Shown here in pieces: positions 595-58,287 of a stretch of DNA of 64,000 nucleotides. The stretch's first letter is position 1, and each line of letters opens with the position of its first letter. The DNA is from a virus (taxonomy: Duplodnaviria > Caudoviricetes). The stretch is taken from IMG/VR virus record IMGVR_UViG_3300012346_000291, positions 2,339 to 66,338 of that record; one strand, given 5' to 3'. The notes beneath the pieces are model-generated. The model searched no databases and had not been told where the DNA came from. It worked only from the letters and a program-made list of their open reading frames with translations. Position numbers and translations under genes: made by a program.

Positions 595-610
595 GTGTCT
601 TTGAAGACAC
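595..610. repeat. Dispersed 16-bp palindrome, copy 1 (GTGTCTTTGAAGACAC)
   Basis: Starts 2 nt after the stop at 593; flanked by G/C to give 18 bp. Confidence 0.9.
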
Positions 611-616
611 CCATAA

Positions 617-657
617 GCGGGAATGGTTCAAGCGAGGGTTCGACTCCCTCGCCCGCA
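617..657 (+). ncRNA. tRNA T-arm-like minihelix 1
   Basis: GCGAGGG-TTCGACT-CCCTCGC hairpin (632-652) enclosed by GCGG/CCGC; intergenic. Confidence 0.45.
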
Positions 658-687
658 ACTAATCAATAACCTTTAAAACAAAACACC

Positions 688-1563
688 ATGAAAAAAGGAA
701 TCGTTTACAATGTAACGGGCGAAGCAGCCCGCGGAGAAGTTCAGCAGTACCACTACAAGCCCGAGCCCTTGTTCTTGAACAAGAAAGCGGGTGTTGTGGA
801 TGTGGCAAGCCTTAAGAAGCGCCAACAGCAAGACGTTCTCATCTTCAATGCTGAGGGCATCGAGTCTAAGTTCACCATCGGGTTCGAGGTTGAGAAGACA
901 TCGCTTAGCCGCGGCGCTGTTCGTGAGTACGAGCTGTTTTGTGGCTTTGAGCGCGACGGGTCATGCGGGTACGAGGCCGTAACGCACATCTTACCTTTGT
1001 TGCCCGCGTCTACATGGCGCACTAAGGTGTACGACATGATGCACAAGGCCGAGCGCATTATTGATGACCGCTACAGCCCATCCGACCACCGATGTGGTGG
1101 CCACATCACCATTGGTGTTGAGGGCTTTGATGGTGACGGAATACGTGACCATATCCGCAAGTTCAGCGGGCTTATGTACGCAATGTTTCGCCACCGCTTA
1201 AAGAACGGCTACTGCAATCACAACATGAGAATGTTTGAGCATGACCCGTACAATATGCATCGCAAGTACCAAGTTGCATTGGTCAAGGGCAGCACATTGG
1301 AGTTCCGCTTGCCGTCACGCATCGAGTCGGTCAAGCAAATGATGCGCCGTTACGAGTTCATGTATGCGACTCTTGACGTGGCAATCAACAAGCCTAGCAC
1401 ATCATTCAAAAAGTACTTGACGGATATGAAGCCTTTACTCATGGCTATGTACGACGGCGATGAGGCCAAGGTCGCTAAGGTGAGCGAGTTAGCTGTTCAC
1501 TTTCAGCAGTTCATCAATACGGGTGAGAGACACGAGTCAATTCTCGAGTTCACCAATAGGTAG
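688..1563 (+). CDS. Putative amidoligase (COOH-NH2 ligase, Amidoligase_2-like)
   Basis: Motifs FTIGFEVE, ERDGSC, CGGHITIG and TLEFRLP, typical of phage amidoligases. Confidence 0.75.
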   Translation: MKKGIVYNVTGEAARGEVQQYHYKPEPLFLNKKAGVVDVASLKKRQQQDVLIFNAEGIESKFTIGFEVEKTSLSRGAVREYELFCGFERDGSCGYEAVTHILPLLPASTWRTKVYDMMHKAERIIDDRYSPSDHRCGGHITIGVEGFDGDGIRDHIRKFSGLMYAMFRHRLKNGYCNHNMRMFEHDPYNMHRKYQVALVKGSTLEFRLPSRIESVKQMMRRYEFMYATLDVAINKPSTSFKKYLTDMKPLLMAMYDGDEAKVAKVSELAVHFQQFINTGERHESILEFTNR

Positions 1564-1599
1564 AGGGTCGCAGCGGGGGTTCGACTCCCCCGCTACCTA
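1557..1599 (+). ncRNA. tRNA T-arm-like minihelix 2
   Basis: AGCGGGGG-TTCGACT-CCCCCGCT hairpin (1572-1594) enclosed by TAGGT/ACCTA. Confidence 0.45.
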
Positions 1600-1605
1600 C
1601 TGATG

Positions 1606-1621
1606 GTGTCTTTAAAGACAC
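1606..1621. repeat. Dispersed palindrome, copy 2 (GTGTCTTTAAAGACAC)
   Basis: Intergenic; perfect 18-bp palindrome including the flanks. Confidence 0.9.
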
Positions 1622-1648
1622 CGAGTATACACAATTAAACTAAACACA

Positions 1649-1870
1649 ATGACGAACAGAGAAATGATTAACAAAAAATTACCCTATCCAATATCGGACA
1701 TGGTAATTAGAAATGCAACGCCTACGGACAACGGGGATTGGCTTGATAGGGAGACCAACTGCAACTACAAATACGAGTTGCTTAGTAGAGCCTTTACATG
1801 GAATGAATCACCCGAGGGTCATGAATTTTGGGCAGAATTATTTATGAAATTATTAAGAAAGAACATATGA
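1649..1870 (+). CDS. Small early protein, PYP(I/L)SDM family paralog 1
   Basis: Shares PYPISDMVI and PEGHEFW motifs with the next two ORFs. Confidence 0.75.
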   Translation: MTNREMINKKLPYPISDMVIRNATPTDNGDWLDRETNCNYKYELLSRAFTWNESPEGHEFWAELFMKLLRKNI

Positions 1871-2091
1871 CACGAAGAGAATTTATTGAGAAAAAATTTC
1901 CGTATCCGATATCGGACATGGTAATTAAAAACTGCACAACTGAGGAATGCGGCGCATACCTTGATGCCCATGTGGCAGATTACGCAAAGCCGAGCTCTAT
2001 GCTTAAATGCTTATTCACATGGAGCTATTCCCCCGAGGGTCATTCTTTTTGGGAATCATTTCACGATAAACTTGAAGCAAAGAACCTATGA
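1867..2091 (+). CDS. Small early protein, PYP(I/L)SDM family paralog 2
   Basis: Likely start at the ATGA overlap at 1867 (MTRREF); PYPISDMVI and PEGHSFW. Confidence 0.75.
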   Translation: MTRREFIEKKFPYPISDMVIKNCTTEECGAYLDAHVADYAKPSSMLKCLFTWSYSPEGHSFWESFHDKLEAKNL

Positions 2092-2351
2092 CACGAAGAC
2101 AAACGATAGAGAAGTACGTACCCTACCCGCTCAGCGATATGCTGATACGTAACGCAGAGGAGTACATGATGCGAGGCATAGAGAGAGAGGGTTACCTTGA
2201 CGAAGAGGTCGATGGTGATTGGTGCTGCGATAGCTACGGAGATGTAAAGATACACGACATAATCATCACAATAATTTGGCTACATCAAACCATAGAGGGG
2301 CTTGACTTTTGGAATAAAATACACGATAACTTTTTAATGAAAAACCTATGA
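2088..2351 (+). CDS. Small early protein, PYP(I/L)SDM family paralog 3
   Basis: PYPLSDMLI and EGLDFW; ATGA overlaps at both ends. Confidence 0.75.
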   Translation: MTRRQTIEKYVPYPLSDMLIRNAEEYMMRGIEREGYLDEEVDGDWCCDSYGDVKIHDIIITIIWLHQTIEGLDFWNKIHDNFLMKNL

Positions 2352-56652: not shown

Positions 56653-56796
56653 TTAGTCGATTATTCTATATTGTCCATTATCGGCAATGCGATACACACC
56701 ATCATCTGCAATTCTAACTCCAAATGGAATAGAAGATACAGGGTGTCTTCCGTCAACACCTACTATGATTGCTATCTGAATACCGTTTATATACAT
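56653..56796 (-). CDS. 47-aa structural/anchor peptide
   Basis: Hand-translated MYINGIQIAIIVG...RIADDGVYRIADNGQYRIID; internal RIAD.G.Y repeat. Confidence 0.5.
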   Translation of the reverse strand: MYINGIQIAIIVGVDGRHPVSSIPFGVRIADDGVYRIADNGQYRIID

Positions 56797-56797
56797 C

Positions 56798-57061
56798 TTA
56801 CCACAAAGCTAAAATGTCAGTAGCTGATGTTCCTGTTGCAAAAACTCGTACTACTTGAACCGGTAAGAACGTACCACCTAGCACATTAGCGAAAGTAACG
56901 TCGTCACCTGTAGCCGTCAAAACACGTAGATTTCCACCTGTACCAATGTATAGAACAAACGCCTCTAGTAAGCCATCAGGAGAACCCGGATAGTCAATGT
57001 TAGTCGTATTATTTGGCACAACTACCTTAGCACTTGTTACCTGTAATTTTTGATATGCCAT
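56798..57061 (-). CDS. Head spike base protein (RcGTA Rcc01079-like)
   Basis: LYIGTGGNL.V...GDDVTF.NV..GTFLPVQV.RV.ATGT.ATDI.ALW. Confidence 0.75.
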   Translation of the reverse strand: MAYQKLQVTSAKVVVPNNTTNIDYPGSPDGLLEAFVLYIGTGGNLRVLTATGDDVTFANVLGGTFLPVQVVRVFATGTSATDILALW

Positions 57062-57110
57062 CTCTTATATAAATTAATAAGACAAAGATACAGATTATTT
57101 TAAAATGAAA

Positions 57111-57132
57111 AAGCCACCCCTAAAGGTGGCTT
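57111..57132 (-). terminator. Rho-independent terminator
   Basis: AAGCCACC/GGTGGCTT stem followed by TTTCATTTT on the - strand. Confidence 0.7.
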
Positions 57133-57158
57133 CGTTTTGGAATTACTAAAGTAGTAGT

Positions 57159-57641
57159 TTATTCGTAAACTTGAACTTGAAGTCTTGCTCCTGATAAAAT
57201 ATCATCAGATAATACTCCTGATGTATTATATGACTTAATGAAAACTGTATTATTTGAACCTCCACCTATAGAAACTCCAAGAAGACCTGCATTAGCAAAT
57301 GGTGAAGCTCCCTCTAATGATATTGTAGCTATTACTTTTCCACTAAGAAATGTATCTACATCAAAAACAAGAGTATAAATTCCTACACCATTTCTAACTA
57401 TAGAATTAGGTGATAAATCTGCATAAATAGCGCTAAACATAGGGGCATTTGTACTTGACTGATTTAAAACTGCAATCAACATCTGAGGAGCTGATGGAGG
57501 TAATGCACCTTCAACTGTATCTACAATATCTTGCATTGTGTATGCCTCGCTCTCAGCATTAATAAGTGCTGAGCGACGCTCTGTAGTTGGGTAATTAGCT
57601 GCTAAGCCAATAAATTTAGTACCTGATGGAATTGTTGCCAT
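57159..57641 (-). CDS. Structural/fibre-like protein
   Basis: IPSGTKFIG..YTMQDI anchor; IVRNGVGIYTL; TATATTTG box at 57657-57664. Confidence 0.5.
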   Translation of the reverse strand: MATIPSGTKFIGLAANYPTTERRSALINAESEAYTMQDIVDTVEGALPPSAPQMLIAVLNQSSTNAPMFSAIYADLSPNSIVRNGVGIYTLVFDVDTFLSGKVIATISLEGASPFANAGLLGVSIGGGSNNTVFIKSYNTSGVLSDDILSGARLQVQVYE

Positions 57642-57668
57642 GTCTTATTTTTTTTACAAATATACGAG

Positions 57669-57845
57669 TTATTTTTTATAAGGAAATGCCTTGTTGAGAG
57701 CCTGACGGCGCTTCTCACAAGGGCTACACTCAGAGGTTCCCTTCTTTACTTGAGCAATCGTGTCGGCTACCTTTTTAATACCCGTGGCCTTAGCAACCTT
57801 ATAAACTGTGTCACCAAAACCTCTGCTTTTGCTTGTAAGTTTCAT
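57669..57845 (-). CDS. 58-aa basic protein
   Basis: Hand-translated SRGFGDTVYKVAKATGIKK...C.PCEKRRQALNKAFPY. Confidence 0.6.
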   Translation of the reverse strand: MKLTSKSRGFGDTVYKVAKATGIKKVADTIAQVKKGTSECSPCEKRRQALNKAFPYKK

Positions 57846-57940
57846 TACTTCTTCTTAGACATTGGTTTCTTAGCAGTGTACACAGGTGCACTCTTTTTAG
57901 TAGTAGCACCCATCTTAGTGCCGCAGCTTGACTTTTTCAT
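57845..57940 (-). CDS. 31-aa lysine-rich peptide
   Basis: MKKSSCGTKMGATTKKSAPVYTAKKPMSKKK; TAATG coupling. Confidence 0.4.
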   Translation of the reverse strand: MKKSSCGTKMGATTKKSAPVYTAKKPMSKKK

Positions 57941-57945
57941 GATAT

Positions 57946-58287
57946 TTATTTTTTAACGTTACTTACTCTATTGCCCATACCAACTCTTGACTTCTCCGCC
58001 TTCTTGGCCGCAAGCTTGGATGGACTCATTTCACTCTTTGTTACGGGTGTCTTTGAAGACACTCTTTTTGACGGTCGACAGTACTCGTTTTTACCACCCG
58101 CACCACAGGCTTTACCTGTTCGCGTGTCAGTCCACTTCTCCTTCTCCCAACGCTTTAAACTAGCACCGCTCTCAGTCTTACGAACGTTACCCGATGCCTT
58201 GCGGCACTTAGCAATAGCTTGAGAGGCTCTAGCCGATGGGAATACATCGTAGGATGCCTTGACTTTTTTATAGCAGGCGTCTTTCAT
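57946..58287 (-). CDS. Basic Cys-containing phage protein
   Basis: CYKKVK..Y.VFPSA.AS.AI.KCR; LKRW..EKW; YCRP.KRVS. Confidence 0.7.
   Translation of the reverse strand: MKDACYKKVKASYDVFPSARASQAIAKCRKASGNVRKTESGASLKRWEKEKWTDTRTGKACGAGGKNEYCRPSKRVSSKTPVTKSEMSPSKLAAKKAEKSRVGMGNRVSNVKK
58047..58062. repeat. Dispersed palindrome, copy 10 (encodes V-S-S-K-T)
   Basis: GTGTCTTTGAAGACAC inside a CDS. Confidence 0.9.

Follow-up and report, generated by a model that had tools for sequence, protein, structure and literature searches.

The 64,000-bp window analysed here (bases 2339-66338 of the 66,338-bp IMG/VR virus record IMGVR_UViG_3300012346_000291, rated complete) contains ten exact copies of the 16-bp palindrome GTGTCTTYRAAGACAC, four of them intergenic and six within genes, where three reading frames are used (Table 1). 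None of 100 dinucleotide-preserving shuffled windows contained a match. A scan of the whole record revealed an eleventh exact copy outside the window, at genome position 1147; positions below are those of the window unless marked as genome positions. Our interpretation, held with about even confidence, is that the palindrome is a dispersed operator of a dimeric phage protein, p217, the product of the first early gene, and that its transcribed copies are reused as the tips of RNA hairpins in 3'-end modules.

The ten copies, with their coordinates, sequences, centres and gene contexts, agreed with those listed in an initial annotation of the window. The centre is TG in seven copies, TA in two and CA in one. 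A search with the 12-bp core pattern returned the same ten copies and one further place at 27928 (TTGTCTTTGAAGACTT), which represents either a decayed copy or a chance match.

Distribution of the palindrome among phages and prokaryotes

The genome-wide recurrence described in the initial annotation extends to the relatives of this phage. Beside the eleven copies found here, the general form GTGTC-N6-GACAC occurred 9-21 times in 23 of 24 related contigs, which derive from phages of about 60 kb, and the reversed control pattern did not occur at all. Of the 118 IMG/VR loci recovered by exact matching, 115 share proteins with this phage. In prokaryote genomes, the 16-mer was found as single copies scattered across phyla at chance level, with the exception of two phage-sized contigs: a 56-kb contig in a Cytophagales metagenome-assembled genome (MAG; WTJX01000555.1) with five copies and a 32-kb contig in a Flavobacteriaceae MAG (JBMZDR010000022.1) with two copies. 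Both contigs are probably mis-binned phages of the same clade, and they hint at its host range. As judged from these distributions, the palindrome is specific to one large clade of uncultured Bacteroidota phages, with close portal relatives on more than 600 IMG/VR contigs. No mention of the three forms of the 16-mer was found in the literature searched.

Selection on the nucleotide sequence and symmetry of the site

The initial annotation had read the conservation of the copies within genes as acting on the nucleic acid, and comparison with the relatives bore this out. The copy in the TerL gene kept all 16 bases in 12 relatives while the surrounding codons and residues diverged; two further relatives carried one-base variants, and the corresponding linker of motif-less relatives reads CYARS, CFSRS or VYSRS. 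In G025, a T-to-C variant of the TerL site costs a change from Leu to Pro. The helicase-gene site occupies one of two places approximately 30 nt apart, depending on the lineage, which amounts to turnover with retention. Copies are also kept at orthologous places in the genes for the DUF5872 protein and the giant 3142-aa protein, the latter carrying a copy in the relatives as well. These comparisons indicate that conservation acts at the nucleotide level.

The pattern of variation is narrow. In 15 p217-bearing genomes, we counted 200 exact copies against 10 with one mismatch. Only positions 6/11 and 8/9 varied, changing as complements. The centre was pyrimidine-purine in all 185 copies from the fetched loci. 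Positions 6/11 were mostly T/A; C/G was mixed with T/A inside some genomes, A/T was seen in one fragment, and G/C was uniform in MW202828, G029 and G030. The arms showed no variation, no wobble and no compensatory changes. Positions 6 and 11 varied independently, TT, TC and CC sites coexisting in one genome, and U.G on the sense strand was no commoner than C.A at these positions (6:6 in intergenic copies and 12:11 in genes). We therefore rejected a base pair between positions 6 and 11 in favour of two half-sites. Two identical half-sites, GTGTC-N-T-Y, fit the degeneracy that would be expected of a homodimer on double-stranded DNA and not that of an RNA stem.

In a survey of RNA context that covered 199 copies from 19 genomes, 160 copies were bare, that is, without an outer stem (102 in genes and 58 intergenic). 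Additional conserved flanks were looked for around the bare copies and none was found. Two other origins of the sequence were considered and set aside. A host-type -7 box inside the motif (TGTCTTTG compared with TAnnTTTG) was rejected because the relatives mostly have the other centre and MW202828 lacks TTTG, and mimicry of a host CRISPR repeat (cf. PMC10651486) was judged unlikely because a 16-nt element with variable flanks is unlike a solitary repeat unit.

The early protein p217 as the candidate reader

The gene for p217 was present in all 14 near-complete motif-bearing genomes and absent from the motif-less G010 and elemoA, and the motif occurred in 69 of 69 IMG/VR loci encoding p217 relatives. 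A further sample of genomes (G034-G039) was picked by portal similarity. Of these, G034 has p217 and eight sites, and G035, G037 and G039 have neither. The complete genome G038 lacks p217 and has four sites left, two of which are mutated at otherwise invariant positions (Fisher p = 0.016). The p217 of G036, likewise a complete genome, is divergent (E 5e-20; recognition helix YSRSWAYK), and GTGTC-N6-GACAC is missing there. G036 has an 18-bp palindrome of its own, TGTCTCTTCGAAGAGACA, with five copies in the early region, one of them within a tRNA-like element.

Variation of the site also follows the protein. In the G-type genomes MW202828 and G029, the predicted recognition helix begins with LSK in place of WQK, as in LSKSRMYR against WQKSYFYK, and the p217 branches are very long; in the portal, capsid and primase trees, the G-type genomes do not group. 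Motif variation tracks p217 and not the portal, capsid or primase trees. On these comparisons, p217 is the sole DNA-binding-like protein whose distribution matches that of the motif. The amidoligase-like, GATase-GGACT and single-stranded DNA-binding protein (SSB)-like genes share the phyletic pattern of the motif; they have other evident functions and were set aside as readers. The binders suggested in the initial annotation found no support: the winged helix-turn-helix (wHTH) protein encoded at 59473 has homologs in the motif-less G010 and elemoA, and the two proteins with DnaA domain IV-like regions (6186 and 16479) are real DnaA_C family members with distributions that differ from that of the motif, the former having a homolog in the motif-less G010 and being absent from the motif-bearing G029, the latter being absent from several motif-bearing genomes.

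The model of p217 consists of a helical helix-turn-helix domain with a long N-terminal helix, an acidic linker and, at the C terminus, a small beta/alpha domain. When this AlphaFold2 (AF2) model (predicted local distance difference test, pLDDT, 79.6) was compared with 48,161 chains, the DNA-binding domain of KorB was among the best four, and VIA-align gave Z scores of 5.5 and 5.1 for the KorB domain at root-mean-square deviations of 3.8-3.9 over 84 residues. VirB, P1 ParB, SopB and Spo0J gave Z scores of 3.9-4.2. Foldseek returned no match of p217 to the PDB at E <= 0.001. Family scans were likewise empty, for Pfam and PHROGs with the C-terminal 196 residues, for NCBIfam with the whole protein and for the PDB with a 14-row profile, and a search of the ESM Atlas with truncated p217 gave weak leads only.

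A copy of the site lies upstream of the p217 start in a recurrent arrangement, at 214-290 nt in 13 of 16 genomes, at 122 nt in MW202828 and at 1131 nt in the present genome. A Bacteroidota-type promoter, TTG-N17-23-TAnnTTTG, was seen in four genomes and the -7 box alone in three more; in these seven genomes, the upstream site precedes the promoter or -7 box by 160-230 nt. Since it lies upstream of the predicted early promoter, this copy should fall outside the early transcript. In the present genome, a rightward match to the Bacteroidota-type promoter (TTG-N21-TAAATTTG) occupies genome positions 1285-1316, approximately 170 nt downstream of copy 1147, and is likely the early promoter read by host RNA polymerase. 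In G004, G005 and G014, comparable boxes precede the p217 start by 39-60 nt. Directly upstream of copy 1147, at genome positions 1077-1146, is a C-rich, G-poor repeat tract with CGCCCG and CCCCGCGC units, and most relatives have similar C-rich repeats (CCTGCC, CCGTCC, GCTGCT) before the equivalent site.

RNA structures associated with the palindrome

In the relatives, a type III hammerhead follows 22 of the intergenic copies, with the CUGANGA core 28-29 nt downstream in 14 of the 22. At these hammerhead-linked copies, the palindromic stem was extended by 4.45 bp on the sense strand compared with 1.0 bp on the antisense strand when G.U pairs were allowed (p = 4e-4). Across 35 hammerhead-linked or terminator copies, 92% of the outer-stem cells were paired, compared with 42-62% under slid pairing, and none of 500 shuffles reached 92%. 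The core was invariant in the 22 hammerhead modules, with compensatory changes at 14 pairs. The features expected of a type III hammerhead, a CUGANGA...GAAA core, an NUH triplet and three covarying helices, can be recognised in the relatives, whose hammerheads matched Rfam RF00008 with E values of 2.4e-5 and 1.2e-4 (37.5 and 35.1 bits, under the 48.5-bit gathering score). At the gathering score, Rfam returned nothing in the whole window nor in the early regions of four relatives. No hammerhead was detected in this phage at E <= 5 in positions 1-18000 of the window or in the first 2.6 kb of the genome. For positions 1-10000 of the window, no RNA runs were listed. Hammerheads of motif-less relatives lack an upstream hairpin of the motif kind. 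In G029, a hairpin before a hammerhead (approximately 2115-2210) has the 17-nt tip GTGTCC-ATTGT-GGACAC, which looks like a drifted relic of a C-type site whose RNA hairpin was kept and whose exact sequence was lost.

Instead of hammerheads, tRNA-like minihelices adjoin copies in this phage. Beside the two in the window (Table 1), sister minihelices lie at genome positions 1623-1665 and approximately 2031-2072, giving four in all. These elements, located in the early leader and in gaps separating early genes, share an acceptor-like stem, a conserved AAUGGUUY linker and a T-arm whose loop is UUCGACU or UUCGAAU, and all lack a D arm and an anticodon arm. ARAGORN found no tRNA; one sister copy resembled mascRNA weakly (22 bits, E 0.26) and matched the T-arm of tmRNA. 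A tRNA-like substrate of RNase P would stack its acceptor-like stem on a T-arm with a GTTCRANTC loop and be cleaved by that enzyme; the minihelix at 617-657 may well be a processing signal of this type. Similar minihelices occur in the relatives, and in G036 the palindrome occupies the position of the anticodon arm.

Other intergenic copies form the cores of hairpins resembling terminators, as the initial annotation had noted for 2826 and 39310, both of which proved to be the tips of long hairpins with T-runs of the kind expected of intrinsic (Rho-independent) terminators. The 39310 hairpin looks like a terminator, its 11-bp stem leading into UAUUUUU on the minus (sense) strand; in orthologs from 12 relatives the stem is maintained by covariation. 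In the relatives, motif copies are also found as terminator cores after a capsid-region gene and at convergent junctions. An RNA-processing role, which the initial annotation had named as an alternative, gained support from the covarying outer stems with sense-strand G.U pairs, the hammerheads in relatives and the adjacent minihelices here. We consider this RNA layer real, given that, in the relatives, the palindrome tops hairpins with covarying, G.U-containing outer stems just before hammerheads. Clustered hammerheads have been described as flanking single prophage genes (Perreault et al. 2011; PMC3088659).

Proposed mechanism

We propose that p217 would be made first, from the host-type early promoter, and we infer that it would bind as a dimer to the site upstream of that promoter, to the many sites between early genes and to the few conserved sites within middle and late genes. 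Binding would control early transcription, as does KorB or a stoperator repressor. As the sites are transcribed, each would also fold as an RNA hairpin, and intergenic hairpins of this kind may have served as seeds that were incorporated in RNA processing, as the stem tip 5' of hammerheads in the relatives, beside or inside tRNA-like signals in this phage, and as terminator cores. The intergenic hairpins would probably cap the 3' ends of the processed messages. The initial annotation had postulated a dimeric phage or host protein that organises, partitions, protects or road-blocks the genome. The symmetry of the site, its co-variation with p217 and the copy upstream of the promoter favour the phage dimer, and nothing supports organising, partitioning or protecting. 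A more far-reaching form of the proposal, which we regard as tentative and well short of an even chance, is that one 16-bp sequence would carry two codes, being both the DNA operator of a fast-evolving p217 and an obligatory RNA hairpin tip that ends messages beside hammerhead ribozymes and tRNA-like signals.

Several observations weigh against p217 as the reader of a dispersed operator. The fold match is weak, a Z score of about 5 lying under the level of trust for helical models, and an N-terminal ParB/Srx (CTP-binding) domain was not found in p217. G004 is an exception to the correspondence between helix and site, having T-type sites with a helix that reads VKN and not WQK. Both G-type lineages share a site in the linker of their own p217 and so may not be independent. 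Co-occurrence of p217 and the motif is partly phylogenetic; since p217 and most sites belong to one early module that can be inherited or exchanged together, a neighbouring gene could be the true reader. A road-block within late genes would seem harmful. The sense-strand centre is CA in 42 and TG in 13 intergenic copies (28 and 25 in genes), and this bias, like the tight coupling to hammerheads at a fixed core spacing, would be more natural for an RNA element.

Comparison with known systems

KorB of the IncP plasmid RK2 is a dimeric helix-turn-helix regulator of the ParB family that acts at about a dozen short perfect palindromes (OB), near to or far from promoters. The present system appears similar in that palindromes are dispersed on one replicon that also encodes the candidate helix-turn-helix reader, and the best specific structural match of the p217 model is the KorB DNA-binding domain. 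Unlike KorB, however, p217 has no detectable sequence relation to the family and no ParB/CTPase N-terminal domain, its putative site differs in sequence and, unlike OB, many of the phage sites lie in genes or are embedded in RNA processing modules. Likewise, parS (consensus TGTTNCACGTGAAACA) is a 16-bp palindrome, often found in coding sequence and conserved at the nucleotide level; here, by contrast, the consensus differs, no ParA partner was seen, and the sites cluster in the early operon and not near the origin.

Cluster A mycobacteriophages carry 20-30 stoperators, mostly in short intergenic gaps inside transcription units, at which the repressor (gp71 in L5) blocks elongation. Stoperators are asymmetric 13-mers oriented with transcription and form part of temperate immunity. 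The two systems share many copies of one short site across a phage genome, whereas the present site is a symmetric 16-mer, its centre, the one asymmetric element, is found both ways round, and no integrase was detected among the proteins scanned. On the RNA side, the motif hairpins resemble the early RNase III sites of T7, the repetitive extragenic palindromic (REP) sequences, the promoter-early stem-loops of T4 type and phage hammerheads, all of which place hairpins or ribozymes between early genes; in either case, a long transcript would be divided into messages about one gene in length, each with a stem-loop at its end. The T7, REP and T4-type hairpins are conserved as structures, lie outside genes and are not tied to one co-varying protein, in contrast to an invariant 16-mer. 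REP/RAYT repeats are imperfect palindromes confined to extragenic DNA and associated with a HUH transposase; such an assignment is at odds with the 102 of 199 surveyed copies that lie in genes, and no HUH transposase was found among the proteins scanned.

Alternative explanations

The main rival, which we think rather doubtful, holds that the motif is an RNA-only element, a stem-loop tip that marks or protects the 3' (sometimes 5') ends of messages and is read by an RNA-binding factor, the ends arising by hammerhead cleavage, RNase P-type processing or termination. The covarying outer stems with their sense-strand G.U pairs, the fixed spacing to type III hammerheads, the terminator cores and the intergenic centre bias all suit it, as do the adjoining minihelices in the window, the G036 copy inside one, and the hairpin of G029, which survives before its hammerhead despite a drifted tip. 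It accounts poorly for the bare copies, the majority of which lie in genes, a setting in which capping of 3' ends is hard to understand. Degeneracy follows two-fold symmetry, also at positions 8 and 9, which cannot pair in a hairpin, and the arms lack the wobble and compensatory variation of a stem. A conserved copy precedes the predicted early promoter, the hammerheads of motif-less relatives do without the hairpin, and the scanned proteins yielded no RNA-binding candidate. A different DNA transaction or reader, such as a priming or replication signal, a hotspot of recombination or cassette shuffling, or the site of a host protein, seems to us unlikely. Early gene content between the sites is highly variable among the relatives, the gene set of this phage includes Sak, a PDDEXK exonuclease, an SSB-like protein and a primase-helicase, and the GTGTC arms equal one of the recognition pentamers of phage T7 primase. 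None of these roles explains the invariant inner T-Y-R-A of a symmetric 16-bp site, motif variation follows p217 and not the primase or virion-protein trees, and prokaryote genomes, hosts included, hold only scattered single 16-mers outside the two phage-sized MAG contigs.

We give very little credence to two further explanations. The sites could be N4-like hairpin promoters for a phage-delivered RNA polymerase, with the giant virion protein as the polymerase; a genome layout that includes a giant late-gene product is reminiscent of N4-like phages, and seven intergenic sites of MW202828 precede start codons by 16-39 nt, six of them by 16-23 nt. However, the 3142-aa protein matched no polymerase family and no PDB chain in family scans and a PDB sequence search, the early operon has a Bacteroidota promoter of host type in front of it, the two arms of the outer stems lie within the same transcript, and the late-gene sites have no consistent orientation. 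It is equally improbable that the motif is a selfish REP-like repeat or miniature mobile palindrome, as might be suggested by the strong turnover of early-region positions and the homogeneous centres inside each genome. A 16-bp insertion would break the reading frame, yet the copies in genes are in frame and orthologous; the flanks show no target duplications or extended repeat units, and the proteins scanned revealed no gene of the HUH or RAYT type. An operator of p217 with reused RNA copies would account for the symmetric degeneracy, the copies in genes and the co-variation with one protein, and it remains the interpretation that we prefer.

Genome organization and other features of the window

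A rightward early/middle block encodes p217, the amidoligase-like protein, the GATase-GGACT fusion, Sak, the PDDEXK exonuclease, the SSB-like protein, the primase-helicase and an SNF2 helicase. The leftward late block encodes the 3142-aa protein, structural proteins, portal, TerL, endolysin and GroES/GroEL. The TerL sequence shares 81% identity with its counterpart in the uncultured phage MW202828 and 45% with the TerL proteins of Flavobacterium Elemovirus and Cellulophaga phages; a near-identity DNA search against GenBank phages gave no match.

The gene at 3979-5019 encodes a fusion of a class-II GATase with a gamma-glutamyl cyclotransferase (GGACT) domain. Together with the Amidoligase_2-like gene, with which it is confined to motif-bearing relatives, it forms an early module of peptide-ligase or tagging type. 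The 100-aa protein encoded at 11303-11605, whose phyletic pattern matches that of the motif, has an acidic C-terminal tip, DDEDEDLPF, resembling bacterial SSB tails and is probably the single-stranded DNA-binding protein of the phage. Four tandem open reading frames (ORFs) of 174-178 aa at 52842-54976 (minus strand) have no family match and are nearly absent from the relatives; the first and third are 56% identical and are thus paralogs. A GIY-YIG homing-endonuclease-like gene at 58284-58988 (minus strand), found in none of the 12 relatives compared, is inserted beside the motif-carrying DUF5872 gene. The phage GroES (Cpn10) and GroEL (Cpn60) genes lie at 59898-61768 (minus strand); several relatives have a motif copy within the GroEL gene and this genome has none.

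Table 1. Palindrome copies and associated features, in window coordinates unless marked as genome positions
Feature	Position	Strand	Description
p217 gene	genome 2278-2931; last 196 codons at 1-593	+	First early gene, 217 aa; starts 61 nt before the window
Palindrome copy, TG	595-610		Intergenic; 1 nt past the p217 stop; tRNA-like minihelix begins 6 nt on
tRNA-like minihelix	617-657	+	Acceptor-like stem, AAUGGUUC linker, T-arm with loop UUCGACU
Amidoligase_2-like early gene	688-1563	+	291 aa
Second tRNA-like minihelix	1561-1602	+	Overlaps the stop of the amidoligase-like gene; fold z -3.8
Palindrome copy, TA	1606-1621		Intergenic; 42 nt past the amidoligase-like gene, directly 3' of the second minihelix; next ORF 27 nt on
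Palindrome copy, TG	2826-2841		Intergenic; tip of a long bulged hairpin (approximately 2808-2856; fold -26.4 kcal/mol, z -4.1), then UUAUUU
Palindrome copy, TG	4976-4991		3' end of the GATase-GGACT gene (3979-5019); bare 16-mer
Palindrome copy, CA	6922-6937		Sak annealing protein gene (6502-7134), C-terminal tail
Palindrome copy, TA	15937-15952		Within the SNF2-type helicase gene (14766-16244); in relatives, at this place or approximately 30 nt downstream
Palindrome copy, TG	24090-24105		Within the gene for the 3142-aa virion-type protein (17923-27351, minus strand)
TTGTCTTTGAAGACTT	27926-27941		12-bp core only; three mismatches to the 16-mer
Palindrome copy, TG	39310-39325		Intergenic, flanked by the next gene and the gene for a 473-aa structural protein (39350-40771); caps a GGGGA/UCCCC-extended hairpin with U-run; fold z -5.3
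Palindrome copy, TG	46399-46414		Within the TerL gene (44374-46614, minus strand), in a variable N-terminal linker; read C-L-Q-R-H
Palindrome copy, TG	58047-58062		Within the DUF5872 protein gene (57946-58287, minus strand); read V-S-S-K-T
wHTH gene	59473-59901	+	Homologs also in motif-less relatives

Implications

The motif is a sharp signature by which phages of this clade can be recognised, and it flagged two contigs binned into MAGs that are probably phage. If the proposed reading is true, the palindrome would be the regulatory code of early gene control in a large uncultured clade, and its natural specificity variants (T, C, G and the 18-mer), paired with variant proteins, would provide a system in which the co-evolution of a protein with its sites can be followed genome-wide. 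On the same condition, the palindrome would provide a defined natural setting for the question, standing since 2011 (PMC3088659), of the roles of phage hammerheads and tRNA-like minihelices. If the two-code form of the proposal holds, shut-off of transcription and processing of RNA would be linked through one protein-site pair, and a switch of specificity, as among T, C and G sites or to the G036 18-mer, would alter both layers together throughout the genome.

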